From: Burkholderiales bacterium
Lineage (GTDB): Bacteria; Pseudomonadota; Gammaproteobacteria; Burkholderiales; UBA6910
DNA length: 24,289 bases
Assembly (NCBI GenBank): GCA_035718105.1
Contig: DASTHR010000209.1
Span: forward strand, 1-24,289
Direction of reading: 5' to 3'
Shown: positions 1,024 to 19,149 of the stretch, piece by piece
How positions within the stretch are numbered: position 1 is the first letter of the stretch
How the letters are laid out: each line of letters begins with the position of its first letter
Translations under genes and position numbers: made by a program
The notes under the pieces: model-generated
Told to the model about the DNA's origin: nothing
The model's database searches: none
The model's input: only the letters and a program-made list of their open reading frames with translations

Positions 1024-1036
1024 GGGTGTTCTCCTT

Positions 1037-1363: not shown

Positions 1364-1377
1364 GAATTGTTCCCTTC

Positions 1378-2025: not shown

Positions 2026-2376
2026 TCAGCCTAGGGGCGGCCGCCTGGGCTGGTCGGGGAGGAACCCGTCGGGATGGTGTGTGAGGCGGGTGACGAAGCC
2101 GGAAGCCGTCGCCCTTCCGGCGGCGGCGTTCGCGGACGACAGGGCGAAGACGTTGCAGAGATGGCAGACGGTGCAGTCGCCACAGATCTGCTTGGCGCTC
2201 CCGGAGCTGTCGTGCTCCGGGTGCGCGTCGCCATGATGCCCTTGATGAGCGTCCACCTGGGCGATAGCGTCCGGCGCCGCATGCTGGCAGAACGCCATCG
2301 TGGCCGCGGCGATACCCTGCAAGGGCAGCCCGGCCAAAGCCAGCAATACCAGAAGAAACCTGAGGGATTTCAGCAT
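2026..2376 (-). CDS. CopL/CzcI/DUF2946-like Cys/His leader protein, copy 1
   Basis: Hydrophobic N-terminus, GLPLQGIAAATMAFCQH, His-rich linker, CGDCTVCHLC, C-terminal DGFLPDQPRRPPLG; clear paralog at 10339-10689. Confidence 0.78.
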   Translation of the reverse strand: MLKSLRFLLVLLALAGLPLQGIAAATMAFCQHAAPDAIAQVDAHQGHHGDAHPEHDSSGSAKQICGDCTVCHLCNVFALSSANAAAGRATASGFVTRLTHHPDGFLPDQPRRPPLG

Positions 2377-2385
2377 GCCGCCAAT

Positions 2386-2415
2386 AGTATAGGAGCGCGC
2401 GCTGCGATGCCGCAA
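2386..2415 (-). promoter_or_regulatory. sigma70-type promoter TTGCGG-N18-TATACT, near-leaderless
   Basis: -10 at 2386-2391 is 9 nt upstream of ATG 2376; -35 at 2410-2415; no SD in between. Confidence 0.6.
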
Positions 2416-2438
2416 GCGGCCTTGCATCCGCGGATTGG

Positions 2439-3119
2439 TCAGCTGCCATTAGGGAAATCCTCGTCCTGCCTGTCGAGGCCGGCGGCATTCGAGCGCAGGC
2501 GCGGGACAAGACCGGGAACCCCGGCGGCGTATAGGGAATATGCGTTGCCGAACTCGGCAGTCAACTCCTGTTCCTCGCGCCCCGCCAGCCTCGCATACAT
2601 GCTCGCCAGGACCGGGAACATGATGACGGTAAGGATCGTGGGCCATTGCAGCAGGAAGCCGAACATGATCAGCACGAAGGCGGCGTACTGCGGGTGCCGA
2701 AGGTGGGCATAGGGGCCGGTCGTGGCGAGGGCATGGCGCCGGCGGGCGTGATAGAGCACCCTCCAGGCCCTGGCAAGGAGAATGAACCCGCCGACGATTA
2801 ACAGGTTGCTCAGGAGGTGGAAGGGGCCGAAGTGGGGATTCCCTCGCCAGCCCAGCAACGTCTCCAGAAGATGGCCCGCATCGTGGGACAGGAAATCCAC
2901 CTCGGGGTAGCGGCTCTGCAGCCAGCCCGAAAGCAGGTAGACGGTGAGGGGAAACCCGTACATCTCGGTGAATAGCGCCACCAGGAAGGCAGAGAACGCA
3001 CCGAAGCTGCGCCAGTCGCGGGACGTCTTCGGCCGATAGAAGCTGAAGGCGAAGATGATGAACACCAGGGAATTGATGATCACCAGCGGCCATAGTCCGT
3101 AAGCGGGCGCGGCGTCCAT
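2439..3119 (-). CDS. Isoprenylcysteine carboxyl methyltransferase (ICMT/PEMT)-family membrane protein
   Basis: Multiple TM segments; LATTGPYAHLRHPQY and REE motifs; the YGFPLT-type N-terminus is typical of copper-cluster members; AGGA RBS. Confidence 0.85.
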   Translation of the reverse strand: MDAAPAYGLWPLVIINSLVFIIFAFSFYRPKTSRDWRSFGAFSAFLVALFTEMYGFPLTVYLLSGWLQSRYPEVDFLSHDAGHLLETLLGWRGNPHFGPFHLLSNLLIVGGFILLARAWRVLYHARRRHALATTGPYAHLRHPQYAAFVLIMFGFLLQWPTILTVIMFPVLASMYARLAGREEQELTAEFGNAYSLYAAGVPGLVPRLRSNAAGLDRQDEDFPNGS

Positions 3120-3121
3120 TC

Positions 3122-3412
3122 CTATTCCTTTCCGGATTCCGGTTGTTCCCCGTTACGGCGCGCGTGTTCCGCGGAAGTGCCGGCCGAACGATGTCCACGA
3201 TGGCTGCCGCGCCCGCCGTGGCCGTGGAGCAGGTGCATTAGCGGGCAGGCGAGAAGGAGCAGATAGGGTAGCCAGCCGTACAAGTGCGCGCGGTGCTCGA
3301 CGATCAGGAAGAAGCCCGCTATCGCCAGGAAACCGATCAGGATCCACTTGCCCGCCGCAGACGAGCCGTCGTTGCCGCGGCTCTCATGGTCATGTTGGTG
3401 CTCGGCCGTCAT
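3122..3412 (-). CDS. DUF2933-family small membrane protein
   Basis: EHRAHLYGWLPYLLLLACPLMHLLHGHGG signature; His-rich N-terminus. Alternative start at 3424. Confidence 0.85.
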   Translation of the reverse strand: MTAEHQHDHESRGNDGSSAAGKWILIGFLAIAGFFLIVEHRAHLYGWLPYLLLLACPLMHLLHGHGGRGSHRGHRSAGTSAEHARRNGEQPESGKE

Positions 3413-3461
3413 GGTGGTCCCCATCGTTCTCGTGCAAACCGGCCTCGGAAGTCCCTCCCGC

Positions 3462-4124
3462 TCATGTGGGCTTGACGGCGCGCCAGAAACTCAACAGTCC
3501 CCACCACCGGCCCGTCGCACGGCCCTGAGCGAAGCCGGCGCTCTCGACGAAGGCCGGAACCTCGCCCCGCAGGTTGCCGGCGGTCATGGGCAGGAACAGA
3601 AACGGCCATGCCACCAGCCACCAAAGCAAATTGGCCGGCCGGTCCACGTCCACCAGCACCAGCTTGCCGCCGGGAACCAGCACCCGCAGCACTTCCCTGA
3701 GCCCCTCGCCCTTCGTCGCCGGAGGCAGGTGGTGAAACATGAGGCTGGAAAGCACGACATCGAAGCTCGCATCGGGAAAAGGCAGCTTCTCAATGGCTGC
3801 GAGGCGGAATTCGACCGGGTCTGCCCCAGCGCGGGCATTCTCCCGTGCCCGGGCAATCATGACGGGCCCCGGATCAATTCCGACCACGACACCCTGCGGA
3901 CCTACCGCCCTGCGGGCAACCCGGGTGAGAACCCCCGTGCCGCAGCCGACGTCGAGCACCCGGTCTCCGGGCTCGAGCCCGGCATGTTGCAGCGTCACCT
4001 CGCGGAAGTGACTGCCAAGTCCGATCGCGCTGCAATAGCGGTCGTACACGGGGGCGAGCCAATCGAGGAGCATGCCGCGAGTGCGCGGGGACGATTCCTG
4101 GGGATGGGTGTGCGCTTCGGACAC
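3462..4124 (-). CDS. Class I SAM-dependent methyltransferase
   Basis: VLDVGCGTG motif I, GIDP, LPFPDASFDVVLSS, LRVLVPGG; GTG start. Confidence 0.9.
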   Translation of the reverse strand: MSEAHTHPQESSPRTRGMLLDWLAPVYDRYCSAIGLGSHFREVTLQHAGLEPGDRVLDVGCGTGVLTRVARRAVGPQGVVVGIDPGPVMIARARENARAGADPVEFRLAAIEKLPFPDASFDVVLSSLMFHHLPPATKGEGLREVLRVLVPGGKLVLVDVDRPANLLWWLVAWPFLFLPMTAGNLRGEVPAFVESAGFAQGRATGRWWGLLSFWRAVKPT

Positions 4125-4152
4125 GGGGCGGCCGGAAATCCAATAAATCAGA

Positions 4153-6474
4153 TCAGAGCGTGACGCGGTTCAGGCGCAGGGCGTTGGCCACTACGGAAAC
4201 CGAGCTGAAGCTCATGGCGGCGGCTGCAATGATGGGCGAGAGCAGCAGGCCGAGGAATGGATACAGCATGCCCGCGGCCACCGGAATGCCCAGCACGTTG
4301 TAGATGAAGGCGAAGAACAGGTTCTCCCGGATGTTGCGCATGGTGGCCCGGCTCAGGCGACGCGCCCGCAGGATTCCCCGCAGGTCGCCCTTCACCAGCG
4401 TTACGCCGGCGCTTTCCATGGCCTCATCGGTGCCGGTGCCCATGGCGATGCCCACCTGGGCCTGCGCCAGGGCAGGGGCGTCGTTGATGCCGTCGCCCGC
4501 CATGGCGACGACACGGCCTTCGGCCTGAAGTTGCCTCACCACTTCTACCTTCTGCTCGGGAAGCACTTCGGCGATCACCCGGTCGATCCCGAGCTTCCTG
4601 GCCACAGCCTCGGCGGTGAGCCGGCTGTCACCGGTCAGCATTACCACCCGCACGCGCTCTTCATGCAGCGCACGGATGACCTCGGGGGTGCTGTCCTTGA
4701 CCGGATCCGCCACCCCGAGCAGGCCGGCCACCCGGTCCTCCAGGGCCACGAACATGACGGTCTGTCCCTCGGCCCTCAGCGTCCCTGCACGCTGCGCCAG
4801 TTCGCCGGGATCAATCCGCAGGACTTCCAGAAGCTTGGCGTTGCCGATGGCCACCCGGCGCCCCTCGACCATGCCGGCGACTCCCTTGCCGGTGAACGAC
4901 TCGAACTCCGATACCGGGAGCAGGGGGCGTTGCCGCTCCTCCGCCCCGGCCACGATCGCGGCGGCCAGGGGATGCTCGCTCGCCCGTTCCAGGCTCGCGC
5001 CGAACTGCAGGATTTCGTCCTCGCGGAAGCCGGGCGCCGCCTGCGCCGTGACCAGCCTTGGTTTGCCCAGGGTCAGGGTGCCGGTCTTGTCCACCACCAC
5101 AGTGTCCACCCTTTCCATGACCTCCAGGGCCTCGGCGTTCCTGACCAGGACTCCGGCCGTTGCGCCGCGCCCGGTTCCCACCATGATGGACATCGGCGTC
5201 GCGAGCCCCAGAGCGCAGGGGCAGGCGATGATCAGCACCGACACTGCATTGATGACGGCGTGGGCGAGGCGTGGCTCCGGCCCCCAGACACCCCACACGA
5301 CGAACGCGACCGCCGCGATCGCGACCACGGTGGGAACGAAATATCCGGACACCACGTCCACCAGGCGCTGGATCGGCGCCCGGGAGCGCTGCGCTTCGCT
5401 CACCATGCGCACGATCTGCGCCAGAAGCGTGTCGGCGCCGACCCGCTCGGCCCGCATCAGCAGGCTGCCGGTGCCGTTCACGGTGGCGCCGATCAGTCGC
5501 TCTCCCTGGTGCTTCTCCACCGGGATCGGCTCACCGGTCACCATGGATTCGTCCACGGAACTGGCTCCCCGGATGACCACCCCGTCCACCGGCACCTTTT
5601 CGCCGGGTCGCACCCGCAGCATGTCGCCGCGCTGCACTTCACCCAGGGGGATGTCTTCTTCGCGGCCATCGTCACGGACGATGCGAGCAGTCTTCGGGGC
5701 GAGGCCCAGGAGCATCCTGATGGCCGCGCTGGTGCGGCTGCGGGCCTTCAGTTCCAGCACCTGTCCCAGCAGCACCAGGGCGGTGATCACCGCCGCGGCC
5801 TCGAAGTAGAGGGGCACCAGGCCCTCCGGGCTGCGCAGGCTGGCCGGGAAGGCGCCGGGCAGCAGCAGCCCCACGGCGCTGTAGGCCCAGGCGACCCCCA
5901 CGCCCAGGGCGATGAGGCTGAACATGTTGAGGCTGCGGTTGACCAGGGACTGCCAGCCGCGCAGGAAGATCGGCCACCCGCCCCAAAGCACTACGGGTGT
6001 GGCCAGCACAAACGCGACCCATTGCAGCCCCCGGGGGGACAGGAGACGGGCGGTGACGTCGGGCGCCAGATCCGACACGGTTGCCATGACGAATACCGGC
6101 AGCGCCAGCGCGGCGCTCACCCGGAACCGCCGCGTCATTTCTGTGAGTTCGGCGCTTTCCGCTTCCTCGGCGGTGACGGTCCTTGGCTCCAGCGCCATGC
6201 CGCAGATGGGGCAGTTCCCGGGCGAGTCGCGGACGATTTCCGGGTGCATGGGGCAGACGTACTCCGTGCGAACGGCGGGCGCAGGCGATTCGGGCTCGAG
6301 CGCCATGCCGCATTTCGGGCAGCTACCCGGGCCCGGCTGCCGCACCTCGCGATGCATGGGGCAGGTGTACATCCCCGACTCGCGTCCGGCCGGAACCTCG
6401 GGCGGCGGGTTGCCGGTGACGCCGGGAACCCGCCCCTCCGGGGACCTCTTACTTGTGGAACTTCTGGTGCTCAT
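4153..6474 (-). CDS. copA: P1B-1 Cu(I)/Ag(I)-translocating P-type ATPase with two N-terminal CPMH...CPxCGM domains
   Basis: [29 protein letters not shown] and MSFSS motifs. Start uncertain (ATG 6474 overlaps the upstream stop; ATG 6372 is an alternative). Confidence 0.95.
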
Positions 6475-6781
6475 GGGCCGGGGCGTTGGGAGCTTCCGAG
6501 GTTTCCGGCGGCTTGGCGGCTGGTCCGGTCTCCACCCCGCTCTTGTGGAAGGAAGCGTGGTCGTGGGGCTTCGGCTTCTTCGTCCCGGCGCCCTTTTTCG
6601 GCGCCGACTGCTTGTCGCCCTCCGTCCCCGGGTCGGCGGCCGTGGACTTGTCGGGCAGGGTCTTTTCGGCCGACGTGCCTGCCTTCGGGGGCGTTGCCTT
6701 GTCGTCGGCGGCGGTGGCCGCCACGACGCCCGACAGTGCGGCGACAATGGCCGCGAGCACTGCAGTTCTTGCGTACGTCAT
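6449..6781 (-). CDS. Small secreted low-complexity protein with two HxHxxFHK motifs
   Basis: AAAAGGAG RBS, ATG 6781, Ala-rich signal peptide, motifs HDHASFHK and HEHQKFHK. Confidence 0.75.
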
Positions 6782-6913
6782 GGTTCTCTCCTTTTCGTCA
6801 GCTAATGGATGATGTTTCCGCGCCTTTGTGGCGCATGATCGTCCGACGGGGTCGCCTCTGGCGGTCCCACCGGGGGTTGCGGATCTCCATATCGAGTTTC
6901 TGAACATTTCTCG

Positions 6914-8428
6914 TCACCCTCGCTCCTGTGGCGGCGTGGCTGGGATCGAGACCGGCAGCCGGATGGAAAAGCGCGCTCCGGCGCCGGGAGTGCTTGCCAC
7001 GCTGACGGTGCCCCGGTGGAGCTCGATCACGCGCTTGACGAAGGCGAGCCCCAGTCCGGCTCCCGCGTGCCGGTGGGAGCTGCCATTCCGGCCTCGAAAG
7101 AAGCGCTCGAAGATATGCGGCAGGTCTTCGGGGGCGATGCCGCTGCCGGTGTCCTCCACCGTCAGCTCGATCTGCCCGTCGCCCGGTTCCGCGGCGATCA
7201 CGATCCGGCCGCCGGACGGGGTGTGGCGCAGCGCGTTCTCGATGAGGTTGTCTAGGACCCGTTCCAGCAAGGTCAGATCTGCCGCCAGCAGCGGGAGCTT
7301 GCGGGGCATTTCCACCCGCAGCGCGACGCCCTTGCGGGACGCCGACGGGTCGAATTTCTGGACCACGTCTTGGGCCAGGTCAGCCACGCTGAAGCGTTCC
7401 GGGTTGAGCCTGGCCTGCCGCGACTCCAGCTTGGCCAGGTCGAACAGGGCGTTGACCAGCGCGCCCAGGCGCTCCGCCTGCTGGACCGCAACCTCCGCGT
7501 AGCGCCTGCGATCCGCGTCGGGCAGGCAGTCGTACTTGAGCAACAGCGTTTCCAGATAGCCCTGCACGGACGCCAGCGGCGTGCGCAGGTCGTGGGAGAT
7601 GGATGCAAACATGTCCCGCAATTCGGCATCGGCGCTGCGCAGGTCTTCCATTTGGGAGCGGATTCGCGCCGCCATCCGTTCGAAGGTCTTGCCGATGTGC
7701 GCCACCTCGTCGTCGGCACGCTCTGGGATTGCCGGCATCGGGGACTCGGCGAAATTCGACGCCTGGAAGCGCTCCATGGCCTCCGACAGGCGGCGCAGTG
7801 GCCGGGTGATGACCGCGATGACGGCGAGCCCCGCGAGGAGGGAGAGCAGGACCCCGGCCGCCGTCAGCATGGCGGCCTCCCGCAGGGCGTAGCTCTGCCG
7901 GAGGTCTTCGGCCACTGCCCGATGGCCCGCGTCGCTGGCGTGATCGGAGCCGTGAAGCACCGCGTAGAGATACGAGGCACCGCCCCCGGAAACCCTGGCC
8001 GCGGAGAAGACCGCTCCCCGGCCATGGGCGGTGGGATCGTCGCCGCGCAGAGGAAATTCCCGGCTGCCGTTGAGCAGGCGCTCGATCGGCTCCAGGCGCA
8101 ACTGGGGGCGGATGATCCGCTCCGGCGGAACCGAGGACGCCACCACGCGCCCTGTGCCATCCAGTAGATACAGATCCACGCTGGGATTCACCCGCGTCAG
8201 CTCGCGCAGCCGGGATGCGATGTCGCCCGGCCCATCGGAGCTTGCGGGCAGGGTGTCGAGGCGGCCCTCAACCACGAGCTGCCGCGCCAGGGAGGCGTTC
8301 AGCTTCTGCACCAGTTCCCGGTGGTATTTCTCGTGGGAGATATTCATCACCACCGTGAACATCAGGGTGACGACGCCGGTAAAGGCGACCAGCAGCACGG
8401 TCAGCTTTCTGTAGAGGGTGTTGAGCAT
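6914..8428 (-). CDS. HAMP-domain sensor histidine kinase
   Basis: Two TM segments, HAMP, H-box SHDLRTPL, NLIENALRH, EDTGSGI, GAGLGL; start overlaps the regulator's 3' end. Confidence 0.92.
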   Translation of the reverse strand: MLNTLYRKLTVLLVAFTGVVTLMFTVVMNISHEKYHRELVQKLNASLARQLVVEGRLDTLPASSDGPGDIASRLRELTRVNPSVDLYLLDGTGRVVASSVPPERIIRPQLRLEPIERLLNGSREFPLRGDDPTAHGRGAVFSAARVSGGGASYLYAVLHGSDHASDAGHRAVAEDLRQSYALREAAMLTAAGVLLSLLAGLAVIAVITRPLRRLSEAMERFQASNFAESPMPAIPERADDEVAHIGKTFERMAARIRSQMEDLRSADAELRDMFASISHDLRTPLASVQGYLETLLLKYDCLPDADRRRYAEVAVQQAERLGALVNALFDLAKLESRQARLNPERFSVADLAQDVVQKFDPSASRKGVALRVEMPRKLPLLAADLTLLERVLDNLIENALRHTPSGGRIVIAAEPGDGQIELTVEDTGSGIAPEDLPHIFERFFRGRNGSSHRHAGAGLGLAFVKRVIELHRGTVSVASTPGAGARFSIRLPVSIPATPPQERG

Positions 8429-9132
8429 TCGCCGCTGTCCGCGAGCTTGTAGCCCACGCCCCAGACGGTGAGGATCCGCCGCGGTTCGGCGGGATCGTCC
8501 TCGATCTTGGCGCGCAGGTTGTTGATGTGGGAACTCACCGTATGCTCGTATCCACTGTGGGTGTAGCCCCACACGGCATCCAGCAGTTGGGCACGGGAGA
8601 ACACCCGCCCCGGGCTGCGGGCGAAGTGCAGCAACAGGTCGAATTCCCGCGCGGTGAGTTCGACGGGGCGACCGGCGAGGGTTACCTCGCGCCGGCTGGG
8701 GTCGATCACCATGCCGGCGACGCTCAGGGTTCCCGGCCCCGCCCCGCCGGGCGCGCTGGCAAAGGATTCGGCTCGCCGGAAGAGCGCCTTCACCCTTGCG
8801 CGCAATTCCGCCATGCTGAAGGGCTTGGTGAGGTAATCGTCGGCGCCGATCTCCAGCCCCAGCACCCGGTCGATCTCGCCGGAGCGCGCAGTGAGCATCA
8901 GGATGGGGGAGTGAATCCTCTCGCTGCGCAGCGTGCGGCAGATCTCGAGGCCGTCCAGCCCCGGCAGGGCAAGGTCCAGAACGATCAGGTCGAACCCCCC
9001 GCTGCGCGCTTTCTCCAGTGCGCCCGGCCCGTCCGCCGCGACCCGGACCTCGCACCCCAGGTCCTCCAGGTGCAGCCTGACCAGGTCTGCGATTTCGTGC
9101 TCGTCCTCCACCACCAGAACCTTCCGCGTCAT
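8401..9132 (-). CDS. OmpR-family response regulator
   Basis: VVEDE, DLIVLD, DDYLTKPF receiver motifs; winged-helix end RILTVWGVGYKL. Confidence 0.94.
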   Translation of the reverse strand: MTRKVLVVEDEHEIADLVRLHLEDLGCEVRVAADGPGALEKARSGGFDLIVLDLALPGLDGLEICRTLRSERIHSPILMLTARSGEIDRVLGLEIGADDYLTKPFSMAELRARVKALFRRAESFASAPGGAGPGTLSVAGMVIDPSRREVTLAGRPVELTAREFDLLLHFARSPGRVFSRAQLLDAVWGYTHSGYEHTVSSHINNLRAKIEDDPAEPRRILTVWGVGYKLADSGECSTPSTES

Positions 9133-9221
9133 GGGAATGTCGCCCGCCGGGTTTCTAGAGACGGTATCCTCGCTGGCGTATCCGGTTACCGGACCGGTTC
9201 GCGCGCCGTTCATTTCTCGCC

Positions 9222-9473
9222 TCAATACTCATGGATCAGGATGTCCCTGAGGGCATCGGGTCGTCCTTCCACCACGCTGGCCCAGCGTTCAACGCCGGTT
9301 TCCCGCGGGGGAGTGAAAGTCTCGCCATGATCACAGTGCAGGCGCCATCGCCGCATTAGGACTTTCAGGCAGTGCGCGAAGGGGATGTCCTCGGGCCGGG
9401 CACGGGCCGCCGCGGACAGGAACCGGCAGCTGCACTGGTGGCCGTGTGGAATTGTCTCGTAAACGCAATGCAT
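9222..9473 (-). CDS. Possible 83-aa Cys/His-rich hypothetical protein
   Basis: GAGG 6 nt before ATG 9473; fills the gap in a co-oriented cluster; codon usage is less biased than neighbours. Confidence 0.4.
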   Translation of the reverse strand: MHCVYETIPHGHQCSCRFLSAAARARPEDIPFAHCLKVLMRRWRLHCDHGETFTPPRETGVERWASVVEGRPDALRDILIHEY

Positions 9474-9553
9474 GCATCGCCTCGCCGGGACTGTCCGCAC
9501 CCGCTTCAAAGGGCCGGCTCCGGCCGATCAAGTCTGCGGGAGCCGGCGGTGCG

Positions 9554-9952
9554 TCAGCATGTGTAGCTGTAACCATCCGACTGGTGAATCTGCTTCAGGA
9601 AGGGGTCGCACACCTTGGGGGCGGGTGCGGCCGCCGGGGTGGGGGAGGGTTTCTCCACGTACCTGCCTTTGGCGGCAGCCTCCTGCTTCATCATTTCGTG
9701 GTCCGGGTTGGGGCTGGCGCCGTCCGTGATCTCTCGTTCGTGGTCCCAATACGTTCCGGGTGCTCTCTGGTCCCCGCGCACTCCCGTTGCGGTCCTGGGT
9801 GCCGCAGCATGGGGAGTGGAGGGCGTGTAGCCGTCCGTCAACTCGAGCTGGTGCCACAGCGCATCGTGGGACCGCGCGAGCGGCGCGAAGCCAAGAAGCA
9901 GGGCGGCGGCCGCGGCCGTGGCCACTGCGGTTCCGATATTGCGGTTGGTCAT
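9554..9952 (-). CDS. Secreted 132-aa protein with three (Q/E)xxx(T/S)DG repeats
   Basis: AAGGAG RBS, ATG 9952, signal peptide, internal repeats LWHQLELTDGY / WDHEREITDGA / FLKQIHQSDGY. Confidence 0.75.
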   Translation of the reverse strand: MTNRNIGTAVATAAAAALLLGFAPLARSHDALWHQLELTDGYTPSTPHAAAPRTATGVRGDQRAPGTYWDHEREITDGASPNPDHEMMKQEAAAKGRYVEKPSPTPAAAPAPKVCDPFLKQIHQSDGYSYTC

Positions 9953-10338
9953 GATCATCTCCTTGAACAGTGGTCGGAAATCTCTGCCGTCCGGGACGCA
10001 TTTGCGGCCCGTTACGCGATTCCAGTATCGAGCGCCGCCTTCAAGCACTGTTCAGGGAAAGTTAAAGAATCGTTCCAGACGCGTTACCCGAGCAATTTCT
10101 CGGAGCGGGCGCCTGCGATACGCAAACCGCAGCTCCGGGTTCGATCCGGGGACGCGATCGGGAACACTTGCTGCTCGGGACTCCGCCATTAGGGGCAAAT
10201 CCTGCCTGCGCCGACACCAAGTGGCGCGATGGTTCCGGGGAACCGGCTAGGCGGCTGGACCGGCCACGAGCGACCGGATATTGGCGCGATGGTCAGGAGC
10301 GCCAGCCACCCGCCGGAGGCAGATCCGGCGTCATAGGG

Positions 10339-10689
10339 CTAGGCTAATGGCGGCCGCTTCGGCAGGTCCGGCACAAACCCGTCAGACTGGTGTACCGGGC
10401 GAGCGACCTGAACGGCTGCCACGAGGGACGGTGTCACGCTGCGAACACCGGGGAGGGCATGGGCGCTGCAAAGGTGGCATTGGTTGCAATCCTTGCAGGT
10501 TTCGCCGGCAGACAGCGTCGGGTCACCGGTGCGGGAGTCCGCAAAATCCGCGCGGGAATCCGGCGCCAGCTGAGTGGGGGTATGCCCGCCGTCGTGCCCG
10601 CACCAAGCCATGGTGACGGCGGAGAACGCCTGCAGTGGCATGCCGGCAAGACCCAGACACAGCAGCAGTGTTTTCAAGAAATGCCGCAT
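10339..10689 (-). CDS. CopL/CzcI/DUF2946-like Cys/His leader protein, copy 2
   Basis: GMPLQAFSAVTMAWCGH, CKDCNQCHLC, C-terminal DGFVPDLPKRPPLA; paralog of 2026-2376. Confidence 0.78.
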   Translation of the reverse strand: MRHFLKTLLLCLGLAGMPLQAFSAVTMAWCGHDGGHTPTQLAPDSRADFADSRTGDPTLSAGETCKDCNQCHLCSAHALPGVRSVTPSLVAAVQVARPVHQSDGFVPDLPKRPPLA

Positions 10690-10695
10690 GGGCAA

Positions 10696-10723
10696 AGTAT
10701 AGTTCGCCCGCGGACGTGGGCAA
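10696..10723 (-). promoter_or_regulatory. sigma70-type promoter TTGCCC-N16-TATACT, leaderless
   Basis: -10 at 10696-10701 lies 6 nt upstream of ATG 10689; no SD. Confidence 0.6.
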
Positions 10724-10847: not shown

Positions 10848-10866
10848 TTTTTCAACAGCCTGCTAG
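10848..10866. repeat. Solitary CTAG-capped end of a MITE/IS-like element (tentative)
   Basis: CTAGCAGGCTGTTGAAAAA on the minus strand, overlapping the LuxR-gene stop; resembles repeat ends recalled from betaproteobacteria; no partner end seen in the window. Confidence 0.3.
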
Positions 10867-11546
10867 GCGTTGCCGCCCTCGGGGCCGGGCCCAGGCTTCA
10901 GGCCGAGGCGATTCAGGGCGACGATGGCTTCGGCCCGGCTGCCGACGTGAAGCGCCCGGAGGATCGCGGTTACATGGATCTTCACGGTGCCTTCGGCGAG
11001 GCCGAGTTCGCGGCAGATCGCCTTGTTGGACCGCCCCTGAACCAGCAGTCGCATTACGTCGGCCTGCCGGCCCGTCAGCCCAAGGTCTGCCGCCGTGAAG
11101 CTTTGCCCCGAACCGGCCGTAACAGCGGGCGCCGGTCCCGGGTCCGCATCACCGCGCAGGAGTTCGGGGGGCAGGTAGATTCCCCCGGACAGCACCAGCC
11201 GCACCGCGCTCAGCATCACGGCGGGCAACGAACTCTTCGGTATGTAGCCCATGGCGCCCCGGCTCAGGCAGTTACGGACCGTCTGCGGGTCGTCAAGGAC
11301 CGAGACGATGACGACGGGCAAGGTGGGGTGACGCTCCCGGAGGGCGTCCAGGGCCGAAAAGTTTTCGGCCCCCGGAATATGCAGGTCGAGGAGGACCAGG
11401 TCCAGGTCGGGTATGCCGTCGGCCATCGCCAGGGCCTCCTGGGCGGACGTCGCCTCGTGCAACCTGACGTCGCTTCCGAGTTGGGTCAAGACCTGGCGCA
11501 GCCCCTCGCGGATCAAGGCATGATCATCAACCACTGCGATTTTCAA
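10863..11546 (-). CDS. NarL/LuxR-family response regulator
   Basis: TTG start; VVDDH, DLVLLD, GYIPKS; HTH LTGRQADVMRLLVQGRSNKAICRELGLAEGTVKIHV. Confidence 0.93.
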   Translation of the reverse strand: MKIAVVDDHALIREGLRQVLTQLGSDVRLHEATSAQEALAMADGIPDLDLVLLDLHIPGAENFSALDALRERHPTLPVVIVSVLDDPQTVRNCLSRGAMGYIPKSSLPAVMLSAVRLVLSGGIYLPPELLRGDADPGPAPAVTAGSGQSFTAADLGLTGRQADVMRLLVQGRSNKAICRELGLAEGTVKIHVTAILRALHVGSRAEAIVALNRLGLKPGPGPEGGNA

Positions 11547-11566
11547 TTTTGCCGGCCTTGCCTCGC

Positions 11567-11590
11567 GGCTTATGTCTTTTGGAATAAGCC
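11567..11590. promoter_or_regulatory. 7-10-7 inverted repeat in the AT-rich divergent promoter region
   Basis: GGCTTAT (11567-73) and ATAAGCC (11584-90). Confidence 0.35.
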
Positions 11591-11706
11591 TTTTGTATTA
11601 ATGCGTTTCGTTGTGATCCCATCCAGCCGTATCATCATAAATACTGAATATCGTGTCAAAAAATCGCATCGCCAAGTGACAGAGCGTGCCGGGTCGGGGA
11701 GGGGGA

Positions 11707-13725
11707 ATGACTGCAGGACGTAACGGGAGAAATTCGCTGCTGGCCGCTGCCATGCTCGCGGCGGGGCCGGCGTTTGCGGCCGACGCGCCGCCTGCGGAGG
11801 GACTGTCGGAGCAGGAGTTCCTGCGGGAGGTTCCGGTGGTGCTCTCGGCATCGCGCTTGCGCCAACCCCTGGATCAGGCGCCCGCCGCGATCACGGTGAT
11901 AGATCGGGAGATGATCGAGGCCTCCGGGGCGCGGGAGATCCCGGAACTGTTCCGCATGGTGCCGGGATTCGTGGTGGGTCACGTGGTGGGTCACGACGGC
12001 GTGGTGGGTTACCACGGCCTCACCGACAATTTCCCGCGCCGCATCCAGGTGCTGGTGGATGGCCGCTCCATCTACTCGCTGGCCAATATCGGCGGCGTGG
12101 ACTGGTCCGCGCTGCCCCTGGCCCTGGAGGACATCGATCGCATCGAGGTCACCCGGGGACCCAACTCCGTGTCCTATGGCGCCAATGCCTTCCTGGGCGT
12201 CGTGAATATCTACACCCGCTATCCGACCCAGGACCTGGGGCTGCAGGTGTCGGTGTCCCAAGGCGAAGAGGGGATCGCCGACCGCTTCATCCGCTATGCC
12301 GGCACCCGCGATGGCCTCGACTATCGCATCAGCCTTGCAAGCCGCCGCGACCACGGTTTCGACGAGGTCAACGACAGCCAGAAACTCACCTTCGCCAATG
12401 CGCGCGCCGAGTACCGGCTGGACCCGAAAAACACTCTTGGGGTTGAGGCGGGTCTGAGCGACGGAAACCAGGGCATCGGCGAGCCGGACAACATCCTCGA
12501 TCCCATCCGCGACTCGGAGGTGGAGAGCAATTTCGTCCAGCTCTACTGGCGGCGCGTGCTGGACGGCGATGCCGAGTTGTTTGTCCAGTATTACCGGAAC
12601 TTCGACAAGGTGCGCGACAACTTCAGCGTCACCGCACCGCCTCCGTTCCCGCCCCTGGTCGAGCCGATCAACAGGGACAAGACTTCCACGCGGGACAACA
12701 TCGAGTTCCAGCACACCTTCGCGCCGGCGGAGAGCCTGCGCTTCGCGTGGGGTTCCGAGGCCCGGTGGGAGCGAGTGGAGTCACCGGGCCTGCTCGGCAC
12801 CGAAGCCACGCAGAAAAACAGCTTCTGGCGCGTCTTCGGCAATGCCGAGTGGCGGCCGGCTCCGGCCTGGCTGGTGAACGCCGGACTGATGTACGAGGAC
12901 AACCAGCTCGGCGGCTCCATGCTCTCGCCGCGGCTGGCACTGAACTACACCATCGCCCCCGGCCACACCGTCCGGGCAGGCGTCACCCGGGGCTACCGCA
13001 CGCCCAACCTGTTCGAGGAAAAGGCGGACGTCAAGGTCTCCCTCAACGGCATCCTCATTGATCAGGACATCCTGGCCAGGGGAGGCCTCAAGCCGGAGTC
13101 CATCCTGGCGCGCGAGATCGCTTACCTGGGGGAGTTCAGCAGCCTGCGGATGTCGGTGGACGCCCGGGTGTTTCGGGAAAGCATCCAGGACCTTATCGGC
13201 GAGCACCAGGAGAAGCTGCCGCCGGGATTCGAGCAGGTGTTTCCCTTCTCCTTCTTCAACGACGCGTTCAATTTCACCAACAACCACTGGGCCAATATCA
13301 CGGGGGCCGAGCTGCAGGTGAACTGGAGCCCCTTCAGCACCACGCGCCTGGTGCTGAGCGCGGCGAACATGGATCTAGACGCCAGCGACATCAACGACGA
13401 TTTCTTCGTCAAGAATCCGAACCGCCCGACCTATGCCCGTTCCGCGCCCCGGAACAGCATGAGCCTGCTTGCCATACAGCGGCTGCCCGGGCGCGTCCAG
13501 TTCAGCGCCCTTTACTCCTACTACGACGAGATGGACTGGCTGGGCTCGGACCGGGTGCCGTCGTACAACCGCCTCGATCTGCGGCTCGCACACAAGTTCA
13601 AGGGGTCCTGGGGGAGCGGGGAGGCAGCGGTGGTCTACCAGAACCTCACGCCCGCCTACACGGACTTTGCCGAGGAAAACACGTTTGATCGCCGGGCGTA
13701 CTTCACCCTTAAGCTGAACTTCTGA
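11707..13725 (+). CDS. TonB-dependent outer-membrane receptor
   Basis: Signal peptide; plug motifs LSASRLRQPLDQAPAAITVID, VLVDGRS, IDRIEVTRGPNSVSYGANAFLGVVNI; C-terminal Phe (LKLNF). Confidence 0.93.
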   Translation: MTAGRNGRNSLLAAAMLAAGPAFAADAPPAEGLSEQEFLREVPVVLSASRLRQPLDQAPAAITVIDREMIEASGAREIPELFRMVPGFVVGHVVGHDGVVGYHGLTDNFPRRIQVLVDGRSIYSLANIGGVDWSALPLALEDIDRIEVTRGPNSVSYGANAFLGVVNIYTRYPTQDLGLQVSVSQGEEGIADRFIRYAGTRDGLDYRISLASRRDHGFDEVNDSQKLTFANARAEYRLDPKNTLGVEAGLSDGNQGIGEPDNILDPIRDSEVESNFVQLYWRRVLDGDAELFVQYYRNFDKVRDNFSVTAPPPFPPLVEPINRDKTSTRDNIEFQHTFAPAESLRFAWGSEARWERVESPGLLGTEATQKNSFWRVFGNAEWRPAPAWLVNAGLMYEDNQLGGSMLSPRLALNYTIAPGHTVRAGVTRGYRTPNLFEEKADVKVSLNGILIDQDILARGGLKPESILAREIAYLGEFSSLRMSVDARVFRESIQDLIGEHQEKLPPGFEQVFPFSFFNDAFNFTNNHWANITGAELQVNWSPFSTTRLVLSAANMDLDASDINDDFFVKNPNRPTYARSAPRNSMSLLAIQRLPGRVQFSALYSYYDEMDWLGSDRVPSYNRLDLRLAHKFKGSWGSGEAAVVYQNLTPAYTDFAEENTFDRRAYFTLKLNF

Positions 13726-13746
13726 TCCCGGGCGGGCGGTCGGATC

Positions 13747-14706
13747 ATGCTGGCGCGTCTGACGGCGGTGTTCGCGGCGGCGCTCGCGCTCGCGCTGGCG
13801 GCGGGCGCCCTGGCGCCAGCGGGCGCCGCGGGTCCTCCGCGGGTCGTTGGCATCGTCACCGGCGAGGAGGGCGGAGCCTATGCCGAGATGGCGGTGGCCA
13901 TCGAGTCCGGGCTGGCGGCGGCGTCGAGCGGCCTGTCTGTCATCCGCGTGCCCGTTCCCGCCGGCCGGGACGGTGCCTTGCAGGCCAGGGGCGCGGACCT
14001 GATCGTCGCCGTGGGAAGCCGGGCGGCTCGGGCCGCGCTTGCCACGGAACACGGCCTGCCCGTCATCGCGACACTGATTCCTCATGGTGCGTTCGAGCGC
14101 CTGGTGCGCGAACACCCGGGGCCGGCCGCGGGCCGGCGCATCACCGCGGTATTCATGGATCAGCCGCTGCGGCGGCAACTGGACCTGGTGCGCCGGGCGC
14201 TTCCGGGCCGCCAGCGCATCGGGGTCGTGCTGGGACCGGATTCCGAGCAGCAGGGCCCAATGCTGGCGGACCTGGCGGCGGATTACGGTTTCCGGCTCGC
14301 GCTGGAGCGCATCCGCTCCGGACCGGAGCTGATGCCGGCCCTGCAGCGGGTGCTCCAGGAGAGCGACGTCCTGCTGGCCGTGCCCGATCCGCTGGTGTTC
14401 AGCAGCGAAACGGTCCAGAGCGTGCTGCTTACGTCCTATCGCCACCGGACGCCCATGGTGGGCTTTTCGCCTTCCTACGTGAAGGCCGGCGCGTTGCTTG
14501 CCGTGTCCAGCAGCCCGGGGCAACTCGCCTCGCAGGTGACGGAGATCCTGCTGCGCATGGAAAAGGGCGAAGCCCTGCCGCCCCCCCAGTATCCGCGTTA
14601 TTTCTCGGTGCACGCGAACGGGCACGTGGCGCGCTCGCTCGGTCTCCGGCTGGAGCCCGAGGAAGCGCTCGAGCAGTGGCTGAAACGTCCGGAGGCGCGG
14701 CCATGA
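13747..14706 (+). CDS. Periplasmic ABC-type substrate-binding-like protein with no permease in the locus
   Basis: Signal peptide; RIGVVLG, DVLLAVPDPLVF, SYVKAGALLAV patterns of the ABC_sub_bind-like family; TGA overlaps the next ATG (ATGA at 14703-14706). Confidence 0.8.
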   Translation: MLARLTAVFAAALALALAAGALAPAGAAGPPRVVGIVTGEEGGAYAEMAVAIESGLAAASSGLSVIRVPVPAGRDGALQARGADLIVAVGSRAARAALATEHGLPVIATLIPHGAFERLVREHPGPAAGRRITAVFMDQPLRRQLDLVRRALPGRQRIGVVLGPDSEQQGPMLADLAADYGFRLALERIRSGPELMPALQRVLQESDVLLAVPDPLVFSSETVQSVLLTSYRHRTPMVGFSPSYVKAGALLAVSSSPGQLASQVTEILLRMEKGEALPPPQYPRYFSVHANGHVARSLGLRLEPEEALEQWLKRPEARP

Positions 14707-16658
14707 GAGTCGGAATCGTCCGCCGGGTGCTGCTCCTGGGCGTGGTCCCGGTGTCCATCGTGGCCGTGATCCTGTCCCTGTATTTCACCAGCACGCGGTT
14801 CGACGACCTGGAGGTGGCGCTTCAGGAACGTGGGCTGGCGATCGCGCGACAACTTGCGCCGGCGAGCGAGTACGGGGTGTTCTCCGGCAATCGCGAGGTG
14901 CTGCAGCGGGTGGCGGAAGCAGCGCTGCAGGAGAGCGACGTGCGCGCCGTGGTGATCGCGGATCGTGACGGTGTGGTGCTCGTGCACAGCGGCGAGCACA
15001 TGGAACCGCCCGCCGGTGCTGCGCCGCCGGAAGGCGGATCCATGACTCAGGCCGATCGGGGCGTGGCGCTGGTCTTCAGCGCCCCCATCCGCCGCGCGCA
15101 GATTACCCTCGAAGCCTACATCGACCAGTCGGCGGAGCTTGAGACGCCGGGGATCGCGCCACCGCCGGCACTCGGCTCGGTGCATGTGAAGGTTTCCCGC
15201 ACCGGCCTGATCAAGAAAAAGGGCCGCCTGCTGGCTGACGCCTTCCTGATCACGCTGGTCGGGCTGGGCATCGGCGCGGCGCTGGCGCTGCGGCTGGGGC
15301 GCGACGTCACCCGGCCGGTCCAGACGCTGACCCGGGCCGTGGAGCGCATCGGGCAGGGGGATCTGGCGGTGCGGGTGGAGGCCCGGTCCGCGGGAGAACT
15401 GCGGGTGCTGGAGGAAGGCATCAACGCCATGGCCGACAACCTGCAGGCGCTGCGCGAGAACCTCGAGGCGCGCATTGCCCAGGCGACGCGGGAACTCGCG
15501 GACAAGAAGGAGGAGGCGGAACGCGCCAATGCGGCCAAGTCACGCTTCCTGGCCGCCGCGAGCCACGACCTGCGACAGCCGCTTCATGCACTGGGCCTGT
15601 TTGTGGCGCGGCTGCGCGATCTCGCCGGGGAGACGGCGGCGGCGGATGGCACGGCCGCTCTCGGCGCGCTGGTCGGCAGGATCGAGGACTCCGTGGGAGC
15701 CATCAACGACCTGCTCGACGGGTTGCTGGACATCTCCCGGCTCGATGCCGGGGCGATGGTGCCCAATGTCTCCGCTTTTCCCGTCCAGCGGGTGCTGGAG
15801 CGGGTGGAAGGCGAGTTCGCAGGCATGGCCCGGGAGCAGGGGCTGCGCTTCCGGGTTCGGGGCAACAGGTCCCGGATCGTCAGCGACCCGATGCTGCTCG
15901 AGCGCATCCTGCGCAACCTGGTGAGCAATGCGGTGCGTTATACGGATCACGGGGGCGTTCTGATCGGGTGCCGGCGCCGCGGCGGGGCGTTGCGCGTCGA
16001 AGTATGGGACACGGGCGTGGGGATCCCCCAGGCCGCTCAGGGGGACGTGTTCCGGGAGTTCTACCAGGTGGGCGGCACAGGGCGCGGCCGGGAGAAAGGG
16101 CTGGGGCTGGGGCTTGCCATCGTGGATGGGCTCGCCAAGCTGCTCGGGCACCGGGTTCACCTCTTCTCCCGCCTGGGTCGGGGATCGGTGTTCGCCCTCG
16201 AGATTCCGCTTGCTCCGGAGGTGGCCGGGGTGGAGGCGCGCACAGCGGAGGCGGCCCCTGCCGGCCCCGCGCCGTCGGGCCTGGTATACGTCATCGAGGA
16301 CGACGCGCTGGTGCTGGAGAGCATGCGCGAACTGCTCCGCGGCTGGGGTTGCAGCGTGGTCGGGTTTGCTACCGGCGACGAGGCGATGGGCGCCTTGGAC
16401 GAGGGCGGTCCGGTGCCCGATCTGGTCATTTGCGACTACCGCCTGGGTACTAAGGAAAATGGCCTCGATCTCATCACCGGAATGCGCGCCCGGGTAGGGG
16501 CCGACATTCCCGCGGTGCTGGTGAGCGGCGACCCTGACCCGGACCTGCCCGGACTGGCGCGGGAGGCCGCATGCCATTTCCTGCAGAAGCCGGTGCGCCC
16601 CGCGAAACTGCGGTCCCTGCTTTGCTCGGTGCGGCTCGCGGTGCCGGGGGAGTCATAG
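14703..16658 (+). CDS. Hybrid sensor histidine kinase (BarA/GacS-like periplasmic domain, HAMP, HisKA, HATPase, REC; no HPt)
   Basis: Two TM segments; LAPASEYGVFSGNREVL; SHDLRQPL, NLVSNAVRY, DTGVGI, GLGLGL; receiver IEDD...DLVICD...QKPV. Confidence 0.92.
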   Translation: MRVGIVRRVLLLGVVPVSIVAVILSLYFTSTRFDDLEVALQERGLAIARQLAPASEYGVFSGNREVLQRVAEAALQESDVRAVVIADRDGVVLVHSGEHMEPPAGAAPPEGGSMTQADRGVALVFSAPIRRAQITLEAYIDQSAELETPGIAPPPALGSVHVKVSRTGLIKKKGRLLADAFLITLVGLGIGAALALRLGRDVTRPVQTLTRAVERIGQGDLAVRVEARSAGELRVLEEGINAMADNLQALRENLEARIAQATRELADKKEEAERANAAKSRFLAAASHDLRQPLHALGLFVARLRDLAGETAAADGTAALGALVGRIEDSVGAINDLLDGLLDISRLDAGAMVPNVSAFPVQRVLERVEGEFAGMAREQGLRFRVRGNRSRIVSDPMLLERILRNLVSNAVRYTDHGGVLIGCRRRGGALRVEVWDTGVGIPQAAQGDVFREFYQVGGTGRGREKGLGLGLAIVDGLAKLLGHRVHLFSRLGRGSVFALEIPLAPEVAGVEARTAEAAPAGPAPSGLVYVIEDDALVLESMRELLRGWGCSVVGFATGDEAMGALDEGGPVPDLVICDYRLGTKENGLDLITGMRARVGADIPAVLVSGDPDPDLPGLAREAACHFLQKPVRPAKLRSLLCSVRLAVPGES

Positions 16659-16853: not shown

Positions 16854-17036
16854 ATGAGGCCGGCGAGACAGCGGGATTACTGGGAAGCGGCGAAAGTTGT
16901 CGGTATGGCGGCGGCGGTGATCCTGCTTTCCTTCGCCATCGCCTTCGCGCTGGCGGAGATCACGTTTCCGGAACGGCAGCGGGTGGAAGTCCCGATGAAT
17001 TCCGGCGATCTGGCTCAGCGGCCGGGCCTGCGGTAG
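16854..17036 (+). CDS. 60-aa single-pass membrane protein
   Basis: GGAGG RBS, ATG 16854, one hydrophobic helix VVGMAAAVILLSFAIAFALA. Confidence 0.6.
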   Translation: MRPARQRDYWEAAKVVGMAAAVILLSFAIAFALAEITFPERQRVEVPMNSGDLAQRPGLR

Positions 17037-17211: not shown

Positions 17212-17266
17212 CACACTGGGAAAGCACTACGTCCTCCACTCAGCCCCTCCTCGCGAGGGGCTTTTT
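17212..17266 (+). ncRNA. Candidate ~55-nt sRNA with an anti-Shine-Dalgarno GUCCUCC seed
   Basis: Promoter-like hexamers, unpaired gtcctccac, then an intrinsic terminator; architecture like the betaproteobacterial CU-rich 'toxic' sRNAs. Confidence 0.45.
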
Positions 17267-17666
17267 GTCACCGCCGGCGGTCTTTCCACGATTTCCCGCG
17301 GGTTGCGGACCTTGTCCGCGCGCTTCACCGGCGTCGCCCTTCGGCGCGGTTCCCCTGGGTGCGCGATCTGCTGCCGCCTGCGCTCGGCCTGGGGCAGGTT
17401 CTTGTCGTCCGTGACCGCCAGGACAATGCCGCGAATGGCGCGGCCGAATTGCGCATCGGGTTCCTCCGGCGTGGTTTCCCTGTCCTCCACCATGTCGTGC
17501 AGCAGCGCGCGCAGAATACCCTCGGCTCGCGCACTCCCGCTTGATTCCTGAGGTCAATGGCGAGCGCAATGGGATTGTTGATGTGGGGCGAGGCGTTCGG
17601 GTCCGTGCGGCGTTGGTCGCGGTGCTTGCGGGGGTCGAAGGCCAGGGCCCGCAGCACCGGCGCCAT
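17227..17666 (-). pseudogene. Frameshifted, C-terminally truncated HD-domain (Mesh1/small alarmone hydrolase-like) gene
   Basis: Frame 1 gives LRALAF..KHRDQRR.DPNASPHINNPIA...VFC. A 1-nt deletion near 17505-17510 switches to frame 2: ALLHDMVED.ETTPEE...FG...IVLAVTDDKNLP...VKRADK. Confidence 0.8.
17242..17266 (+). terminator. Rho-independent terminator
   Basis: Stem AGCCCCT/AGGGGCT, 7-nt loop, followed by a T-run. Confidence 0.8.
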
Positions 17667-18052: not shown

Positions 18053-18192
18053 CTGGCGGCGGGATTCCTGCGCGCTCCAACCTAAGCCTGACCCGATGAA
18101 TCAACAAGTTTTTAGGAGGCTCCGTGGCGACGGATTGCGCACACTCCGTGTTAACATCATTTTGGCCGGCCTAACAATATTAGGAAATCGTG

Positions 18193-19149
18193 ATGAGGGA
18201 GCTGACGGAAAAGGACGTCGAAGTCCTTGCCGGGTCGAAACTGTTCCATCTCGTTGAACTGGATCTGGTGGACCACCTGCTGGAGGACTGCTCGGTGCGG
18301 ACCCTCCGCAAGGGGGAGGTGCTTCTGGCCGAAGGCAAGCGGGCCAGCGAGAGCGTGTTCGTGGTGCTGGAGGGGGCCGTTAGCGTCCACTTGGGCGGCA
18401 AGAGCGCCGACCCTTACACGATCATCAATCCCGGCGAATCCGCGGGGGAGATGTCGGTCATCGACGGACGCCCGATCTCCGCCACCGTGGTGGCGACCGA
18501 ACCGACGCGGGTGCTGGTCATTCCCGAGCTGGTGCTCTGGTCGTTCGTGAGCACCTCGCACCAGATGGCGAGGAACATGCTGCTGGAGCTGTCGCTGCGC
18601 ATGCGCCATGACAACGGCGCACTGGTGGCAAGCATCGAGCAGCAGCGTGAGCTGGAGCAGGCGGCGAGCACCGACGGGCTCACCGGCCTGCGCAACCGGC
18701 GCTGGATGAACCAGGCATTCCGGCGCGAGATTGACCGCTGCGCCCGGGACAAGAAGCCGGTGAGCCTGATCCTCGCCGATCTGGACAATCTCAAGCTCGC
18801 CAACGATCGCGGCGGCCATCTGGCGGGCGACGCGGTGATCTGCCGGGTGGCCTCGGTGCTGCTGCGGAACCTCCGGCCCATGGACCTGCTTGCCCGCTAT
18901 GCCGGCGACGAGTTCTGCCTGCTGCTGCCGGGGACCAACGAGACCGCGGCGCGGCGGGTGGCGGAGCGGCTGCGTTCCGCGGTGGAGAAGGAAGTCCACA
19001 TCGATCTCGGAACCGGACCCATTCTGGCCACCGTTTCCTGCGGGGTGGGCAGCGGTCCCCACGACTGCACCCTTGAGGAACTGTTTCGCGGCGCGGACGC
19101 GTCGCTCTACCGCGCCAAGGAAGCCGGGCGCAACCGCGTCGGCAGCTGA
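18193..19149 (+). CDS. cNMP-binding (Crp-like) domain fused to a GGDEF-family diguanylate cyclase (AGDEF variant)
   Basis: N-terminal GESAGEMSVIDG beta-roll; DGLTGLRNRR, DLDNLKLAND..GHLAGD, RPMD I-site, RYAGDEF, LYRAKEAGRN. Confidence 0.9.
   Translation: MRELTEKDVEVLAGSKLFHLVELDLVDHLLEDCSVRTLRKGEVLLAEGKRASESVFVVLEGAVSVHLGGKSADPYTIINPGESAGEMSVIDGRPISATVVATEPTRVLVIPELVLWSFVSTSHQMARNMLLELSLRMRHDNGALVASIEQQRELEQAASTDGLTGLRNRRWMNQAFRREIDRCARDKKPVSLILADLDNLKLANDRGGHLAGDAVICRVASVLLRNLRPMDLLARYAGDEFCLLLPGTNETAARRVAERLRSAVEKEVHIDLGTGPILATVSCGVGSGPHDCTLEELFRGADASLYRAKEAGRNRVGS

Follow-up and report, generated by a model that had tools for sequence, protein, structure and literature searches.

A TonB-dependent receptor, an orphan binding protein and a hybrid kinase as a candidate trans-envelope sensing cassette in a Burkholderiales bacterium

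What does an outer-membrane receptor do in an operon with a binding protein that has no transporter and with a membrane-bound sensor kinase? The question is raised by contig DASTHR010000209.1 of a Burkholderiales bacterium (assembly GCA_035718105.1), the whole 24,289 nucleotides of which we call the window. Between positions 10863 and 16658 the window encodes a NarL/LuxR-type response regulator and, divergently from it, a TonB-dependent receptor (TBDR), a secreted substrate-binding protein (SBP) and a hybrid sensor kinase. An initial annotation had proposed that the receptor imports a signal rather than a nutrient, that the binding protein presents this signal to the kinase and that the regulator provides the output. 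That reading has held up: relatives of these genes do occur together, and nothing that we found points to service of the binding protein in a distant ATP-binding cassette (ABC) transporter. We think it probable that the locus is a trans-envelope sensing cassette, dependent on TonB and independent of sigma factors, in which the binding protein acts as a co-sensor of the kinase.

The operon and its encoded proteins

Domains were called by Pfam and NCBIfam profile scans of the open reading frames (ORFs) of the window, and the locus of the closest relative, L010, served for synteny and for the placement of start codons. The scans put all four genes, with their domains, where the initial annotation had placed them. 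The TBDR gene (11707-13725, plus strand, 672 aa) ends in a TGA stop at 13723-13725, 21 nucleotides ahead of the ATG of the SBP gene at 13747 (13747-14706, plus strand, 319 aa). The SBP stop in turn overlaps the start of the kinase gene (14703-16658, plus strand, 651 aa) in gccATGAgag (14703-14706), so that the short gap and the ATGA coupling described earlier can both be read in the sequence. The regulator gene (10863-11546, minus strand, 227 aa) points away from the operon. Neither the scanned ORFs of the window nor the genes mapped by synteny with L010 include an ABC permease or ATPase, TonB/ExbBD, a sigma factor of the extracytoplasmic function (ECF) group, an anti-sigma factor or an Hpt domain, in agreement with the initial annotation, and no catabolic enzymes, including those of hydrocarbon catabolism, were found among the scanned window genes.

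The reading frame of the TBDR opens at 11686, and its start is most likely the ATG at 11707, because the 83%-identical homologue at L010 aligns there from residue 1. The predicted protein has a signal peptide, a TonB-box-like segment, a plug (Pfam Plug, 70.9 bits) and a 22-strand-type barrel (TonB_dep_Rec_b-barrel, 93.4 bits). That it lacks a signaling extension of the FecA type, as had been claimed, is borne out: there is no match to the STN domain, a weak match to the FecA model begins only at profile position 98, and approximately 30 mature residues, including the TonB-box-like EVPVVLSAS, precede the plug. Its best curated family is TOL_0244 (NF053590), which it matches over the full length at 209.5 bits against a cut-off of 645. 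Membership in this family was rejected both on the score and on the partners, which here are PF04392 and sCache_4 proteins rather than DUF4154 and CHASE8 proteins.

The SBP has a Sec-type signal peptide that is legible in its translation, and it belongs to PF04392 (ABC_sub_bind) by a score of 53 bits against a cut-off of 25.9, over profile positions 56-253 only. Canonical members of PF04392, which served as a control, score 325-336 bits and lie in operons of an SBP, a BPD_transp_2 permease and an ABC_tran ATPase (L025 and L029). No BPD_transp_2 permease or ABC ATPase lies beside the SBP in the window, or beside members of its subfamily where neighbors were scanned, and we treat these proteins as a divergent, sensor-associated subfamily of type-I periplasmic binding proteins. 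An AlphaFold2 model of the SBP (pLDDT, the predicted local distance difference test score, 93.4) gives a complete two-lobed type-I binding-protein fold with a cleft. The solved folds that match the model best are binders of aromatic amino acids, namely CD0873, VC_1101 (3LKV) and SP1069 (3LFT), at 18-21% identity, and TorT is among the more distant matches (rank 44). Two residues that govern side-chain preference in the aromatic-amino-acid binders (PMC6816091) map to hydrophobic residues in the SBP; this manual mapping, which used the 3LKV alignment and an inferred shift of published numbering by 9 relative to the chain index, is approximate and identifies no ligand. Remote relatives of the subfamily adjoin sensors as well, a HAMP protein at L028 and an sCache_4-HisKA_3 kinase at L023. 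At the latter (L023:2-2442, minus strand), the kinase, of the HisKA_3 (NarX-like) class, is preceded by a very remote SBP relative that has no Pfam match at E 0.001, so that the pairing of SBP and sCache_4 reaches a third kinase class.

The kinase, whose start was set by its L010 homologue, consists by Pfam of a first transmembrane helix (TM1), a periplasmic sCache_4 domain, a second helix (TM2), HAMP, HisKA, HATPase_c and REC. The earlier description of this protein as BarA/GacS-like stands for the input half (helix, sCache_4, helix, HAMP) and fails for the transmitter half. The series sCache_4, HAMP, HisKA, HATPase and REC of the BarA/GacS kinases is present, but no Hpt domain is matched, the REC match covers 537-647 of 660 with the protein ending a few residues later, and the BarA model gives 240.5 bits against a cut-off of 890. 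The best model is instead that of the NahK/ErcS-type C-terminal region (NF041832), matched essentially from end to end (1-368 of 370) at 365.3 bits, short of its curated cut-off of 400. A BarA/GacS identity was therefore rejected for the transmitter half. The regulator combines a receiver (Response_reg, 72.9 bits) with a GerE helix-turn-helix (56.6 bits), and the acidic residues and the lysine are conserved in its translation. Its best NCBIfam model is ErdR/CrbR (NF041830) at 140 bits against a cut-off of 390, with the NarL model at 121 bits and the UvrY/GacA model at 59.6 bits; we assign it to the general NarL/LuxR architecture and describe it as ErdR-like.

A constant input with changing outputs

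The surroundings of the SBP were analyzed in two samples. For the first, species-representative genomes were scanned with an SBP alignment, and the 80 best-matching loci were analyzed with tblastn and with profiles derived from the matches; these loci come from Sulfuricella, Undibacterium, Rhodoferax, Zoogloea, Uliginosibacterium and others. In 75 of the 76 assessable loci, an sCache_4 sensor lies directly 3' of the SBP, and a TBDR lies directly 5' of it in 56 of the 76 and elsewhere in the locus in 7 more. For the second sample, 400 genomes were drawn evenly across the class to which the window belongs. Eighty of them match the SBP profile at E<=1e-15, and 70 loci (E below ~1e-40) were taken with 5-kb flanks; sCache_4 comes next after the SBP in 65 of 68, a TBDR stands before the SBP in 48 of 62, and a full-length NarL-type regulator is present in 11 of 70. 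Fused SBP-sensor or TBDR-SBP proteins were considered for the long open frames of this class sample, which in high-GC DNA may be SBP frames extended upstream. Because the arrangement is found in most of the approximately 150 related loci, it is far beyond chance, and the neighborhood on which the initial annotation had built is a conserved one.

The fourth gene is conserved alongside kinases of the present type. Twelve loci encode a histidine kinase core 47-58% identical to that of our kinase, and 10 of these have a NarL-type regulator (38-47% identical), 8 divergent upstream and 2 convergent downstream (L045 and L081). The full four-gene divergent layout occurs in six Zoogloea loci (L092, L093, L104, L105, L108 and L110) and two Uliginosibacterium loci (L100 and L109). 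In a phylum-level sample, all 13 of 13 strong SBP matches fell inside the window's own class. Named carriers include the Pseudomonas nitroreducens, P. nicosulfuronedens, P. lini and P. frederiksbergensis groups, many Marinobacter species, Sulfuritortus and Thiohalobacter.

What follows the SBP and the sCache_4-HAMP module is far from constant. Behind the same input, sensors end in HisKA-HATPase-REC-Hpt (BarA/GacS-like, ~900 aa), in HisKA-HATPase-REC without Hpt, which is the class of this window, in GGDEF or in GGDEF-EAL. On an SBP tree (FastTree, 122 rows), the output class changes at least 7 times, as compared with a mean of 43.5 when labels are shuffled; the count is rough, and one locus in the tree is mislabelled. 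Swapping of outputs behind a constant SBP-sCache_4 pair means that the conserved unit is the input side, and it speaks for the SBP and the sCache_4 domain working together. The TBDR, too, is better read as an input than as a target, because GGDEF and GGDEF-EAL outputs cannot directly regulate the TBDR gene. The combination of TBDR, SBP and sCache_4 thus behaves like an input cassette that is portable.

The relation of cassette kinases to the GacS-like kinases of the same genomes varies. Pseudomonas sp. GCEP-101 encodes its cassette kinase in a 651-aa frame and has a separate 929-aa GacS-like frame. Of three genomes that were compared (G514, G681 and G240), one Pseudomonas and one Marinobacter genome encode, besides the cassette kinase, a separate GacS-like sCache_4 kinase with a frame of ~930-1010 aa; in G240 the cassette kinase is the only sCache_4 kinase. 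In some of the sampled genomes, the cassette kinase, of ~900 aa and with Hpt, is likewise the sole sCache_4 kinase.

The Pah system and other comparable systems

The mechanism put forward by the initial annotation is not new, as the same model has been published for PahS, PahP, PahK and PahR of Cycloclasticus. In Cycloclasticus sp. P1, PahS (a TBDR, 687 aa), PahP (an SBP, 318 aa) and PahK (a kinase, 771 aa) follow one another in a cluster as Q91_0827, Q91_0826 and Q91_0825 (PMC10570129; gene table in PMC8547461), and the 215-aa PahR, annotated as the global regulator GacA (PMC8547461), is unlinked to them (PMC10570129). PahS and PahP are reported to bind polycyclic aromatic hydrocarbons (PAHs) at the nanomolar level, the PahS-PahP and PahP-PahK interactions are reported to change with ligand, and transposon mutants no longer use PAHs (PMC10570129). 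In the model drawn from these data, the TBDR hands the ligand to the SBP and the SBP activates the kinase, the imported molecule being a signal and not food; homologues were listed in Pseudomonas, Marinobacter and other genera (PMC10570129).

Several features are shared with our locus. Gene order is the same, sizes are close (687, 318 and 771 aa versus 672, 319 and 651 aa), no ECF sigma partner has been described for the Pah TBDR and none is found here, both SBPs are transporter-less and of the classic two-lobe type, with three strands in the hinge, and both regulators have the size of the NarL family (215 versus 227 aa). Judged from the circumstantial evidence of gene order, sizes and carriers, we consider it likely that the cassette is homologous to the Pah proteins. 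There are also differences. PahR is unlinked and annotated as GacA, whereas the regulator here is adjacent, divergent and closer to the ErdR than to the UvrY/GacA model. PahK is described as having no periplasmic sensor domain, whereas the kinase here has a clear sCache_4 and lacks an HPt. Pah ligands are PAHs, whereas no hydrocarbon genes were found near this copy. Judged by its sequence, this copy differs in its transmitter, which has no HPt and resembles NahK and CrbS, and in its adjacent ErdR-like regulator. The annotation of PahR as GacA implies a kinase of the GacS type, that is, one with sCache_4, and most cassette kinases of our class sample are of that kind; the length of 771 aa and the missing sensor domain of PahK could reflect a mis-called start.

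Attempts to meet the Cycloclasticus proteins directly gave little. No Cycloclasticus was among the 18 matches of a profile of marine members, a Marinobacter query had only Marinobacter among its best 120 matches, and the SBP-alignment scan that gave the 80 loci above brought up closer, Burkholderiales-type relatives only, with no Cycloclasticus among the matches listed. When 151 SBP frames were screened for the PahP pocket residues (Y42, L135, A210, Y215, F237 and L254) together with the 687/318/771 lengths, nothing convincing emerged.

Other known systems share parts of the arrangement. First, TorT/TorS and LuxP/LuxQ also place a transporter-less binding protein beside a membrane hybrid kinase, on whose periplasmic domain it is thought to dock, and TorT has the type-I binding-protein fold of our SBP. 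These systems differ from ours in having no outer-membrane receptor and in using binding proteins of other families. The sensor domains of TorS and LuxQ have other folds than sCache_4. Second, FecA/FecR/FecI relies on an N-terminal signaling (STN) domain, an anti-sigma factor and an ECF sigma factor, none of which was found among the scanned ORFs of this locus, where the relay instead consists of an SBP and a two-component system. Third, BarA/GacS shares the helix, sCache_4, helix and HAMP input of our kinase but possesses an Hpt, and our regulator is unlike its GacA/UvrY partner. Finally, the CrbS/CrbR pair (alias MxtR/ErdR) offers a precedent for an HPt-less hybrid kinase with an ErdR-type regulator (PMC12997753). 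CrbS and the NahK/ErcS kinases have the same transmitter of HisKA, HATPase and REC as the kinase here, although scores here stay below the cut-offs. Their inputs differ completely from sCache_4: that of CrbS is a solute-symporter-like domain, and NahK partners with NosP (PMC12997753).

A sister cassette accompanies the closest curated relatives of our receptor. TBDRs at or near the TOL_0244 cut-off are not followed by PF04392 proteins (loci L111-L140). CHASE8-HAMP is present in 7 of 7 scanned sensors downstream of TOL_0244-family TBDRs, and in the two loci examined for it, a YfiR/HmsC-like DUF4154 protein of ~180-200 aa lies between TBDR and sensor (L123:3442-4035 and L125:3435-3974). These two domains, CHASE8 and YfiR, are also those of the YfiN/YfiR pair; YfiB, the outer-membrane protein of that system, is a Pal-like lipoprotein and not a TBDR. 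Both YfiB/YfiR/YfiN and the TOL_0244 cassette are built in three tiers, as is the locus here, with one protein in the outer membrane, a small one in the periplasm and, in the inner membrane, a sensor whose output can be swapped. They differ from it in the pieces, the sister cassette using a DUF4154 protein of ~180 aa and CHASE8 where ours uses a binding-protein fold and sCache_4; the TBDRs of the two cassettes are nonetheless each other's closest curated relatives. Together these arrangements suggest a broader theme of outer-membrane receptor, periplasmic adaptor and inner-membrane sensor. Literature searches by Pfam names, and for a cassette of TBDR, YfiR and CHASE8, returned nothing on either cassette.

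Mechanism, alternatives and meaning

We infer the following course of import, ligand hand-over, contact between SBP and kinase, and phosphotransfer. The TBDR would bind an extracellular compound and admit it to the periplasm, powered by a TonB encoded elsewhere; the host genome has four TBDR plug domains in total and three TonB_C matches above the family cut-off, all of the latter located away from this locus. The secreted PF04392-like protein, as a dedicated co-sensor and not a part of a transporter, would then bind the compound and dock on the sCache_4 domain of the kinase. The signal, passing through HAMP, would alter autophosphorylation of the kinase, and phosphate could reach the divergent NarL/ErdR-like regulator either directly or with the kinase receiver acting as a sink or gate, leading to changes in transcription.

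Several observations weigh against this account. The kinase has a receiver but no HPt, which leaves its route to the regulator unclear. About one-quarter of the SBP-sensor pairs have no TBDR beside them, so that the pair need not have the receptor. A search of eight other genomes of the same family did not find the cassette, with no match in seven and an insignificant one (E 2.5e-4) in the last; in that family it is thus an accessory element and cannot fill a core role. Finally, the host genome (a 2.89-Mb assembly in 504 contigs) is estimated to be 77% complete, leaving room for a hidden partner gene.

The alternative that survives best, although we regard it as unlikely, is substrate-induced uptake as in PfeA/PfeS/PfeR or PirA/PirS/PirR. 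On this reading, the TBDR would mainly import a nutrient and would itself be the regulated target; the SBP and kinase would sense the nutrient after its import into the periplasm, and the regulator would raise TBDR expression, such that nutrition would come first and sensing second. Control of TBDRs by two-component systems is established for PfeSR and PirSR, and an autoregulated receptor would fit the local architecture, in which the regulator gene and the TBDR operon diverge from one shared AT-rich intergenic region (11547-11706) that contains a perfect inverted repeat, GGCTTAT-N10-ATAAGCC (11567-11590), a candidate operator for the NarL-type regulator. A single promoter-like site was found in this region, on the minus strand at 11659-11631. 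The repeat is not kept in the Zoogloea or Uliginosibacterium loci, and no common operator motif emerged when the regulator-TBDR intergenic region of the window was compared with the eight divergent loci of the same layout. Also in favor of uptake, the curated TBDR family closest to our receptor has as its type member TOL_0244, which shows a sevenfold rise on the n-C28 alkane (PMC6304351). Against it, neither an inner-membrane importer nor catabolic genes were found in the locus, many homologous sensors end in the GGDEF or GGDEF-EAL outputs discussed above, through which the TBDR gene could not be directly regulated, and the three clustered genes of Cycloclasticus are reported to be constitutive (PMC10570129).

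Less probable still is a partner switch without transport, following the logic of YfiB/YfiR/YfiN. In such a switch, the periplasmic face of the outer-membrane protein would hold or release a periplasmic regulator of the sensor according to ligand occupancy or the state of the envelope, and nothing need cross the outer membrane. This possibility is kept alive by the sister cassette, in which the TOL_0244 family sits with a YfiR/HmsC-like protein and a CHASE8-HAMP sensor and thus with the domains of YfiR and YfiN, and by the reported binding of PahP to PahS in the absence of ligand and its release when ligand is present (PMC10570129). It fits less well with two features of the present proteins: the modeled SBP keeps the full two-lobed fold with its cleft, which argues for small-molecule binding of its own, and the TBDR retains a TonB-box-like segment, which argues for gated passage.

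We regard as very improbable the remaining alternative, in which the SBP would be an ordinary ABC component whose permease and ATPase lie elsewhere or on unassembled DNA and whose adjacency to the kinase reflects shared regulation only: Pfam does assign the SBP to ABC_sub_bind, and the incomplete genome does have PF02653 permeases on four other contigs, but the single permease among these belongs to a urea-type system with its own Peripla_BP_5, the others are paired on their own contigs, the SBP is the sole PF04392 gene found in the genome, and canonical PF04392 genes adjoin permease and ATPase genes whereas subfamily members, where neighbors were scanned, do not and instead adjoin an sCache_4 sensor in nearly all of the ~150 loci. 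The one sCache_4 match of the genome, like the one PF04392 match, is in this operon, and Hpt domains occur only inside large frames or proteins on other contigs.

The transcription unit probably comprises the TBDR, SBP and kinase genes and perhaps a small ORF behind them (16854-17036, plus strand), because the only terminator-like site between 10700 and 17400 is a strong hairpin at 17242-17262. The small ORF encodes one predicted membrane helix and is 52% identical to the 90-aa post-kinase gene of L010, the alignment extending beyond the stop of the window ORF; as a possible operon tail, its membership in the system is uncertain. Upstream, from ~1000 to 10700, lies a copper/heavy-metal cluster that encodes a CusF-domain protein, DUF2933, a methyltransferase and a P-type ATPase with heavy-metal-binding domains and that has its own OmpR-type regulator and kinase. 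Downstream, gene order is the same as in L010, with an HD_4 gene, DUF5619, a cNMP-binding GGDEF protein, DUF364/DUF4213 and two unknowns, followed by a tRNA-Arg gene. The HD_4-domain gene (17272-17666, minus strand) is matched by its 175-aa L010 homologue in two frames that meet near 17508-17517, and it is either a frameshifted gene or an error in a metagenome-type assembly. The cNMP-binding GGDEF protein (18190-19149, plus strand) keeps its position in L010 at 84% identity; a longer ORF opposite its gene is spurious, as are several other long ORFs in this region of 65-71% GC.

What the locus means depends on the scale at which it is viewed. In this genome by itself, the locus amounts to an accessory sensory system. 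More broadly, we hold it a serious possibility, though short of probable, that the trio of TBDR, SBP and sCache_4 sensor serves the Gammaproteobacteria (in the GTDB sense), with the SBP subfamily in about one-sixth of sampled genomes, as a general trans-envelope input device, agnostic to its output, that can be plugged into two classes of kinase transmitter or into enzymes of cyclic di-GMP (c-di-GMP) metabolism, and that together with the sister cassette it defines a lineage of signaling TBDRs that have neither an N-terminal extension nor an ECF sigma factor and whose cues extend well beyond hydrocarbons. Annotation pipelines currently hide the cassette behind generic labels, every named SBP member that we found being annotated only as "ABC transporter substrate-binding protein" or "hypothetical protein," and the one probable member studied so far has been studied for hydrocarbons only. 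Yet the family is large, its output is modular, and it is present in tractable genera, including the Pseudomonas nitroreducens and P. lini groups, Marinobacter and Zoogloea. If the cassette works as we propose, many bacteria would use TBDRs as antennae for two-component and c-di-GMP signaling, without recourse to the FecA/FecR/FecI route.

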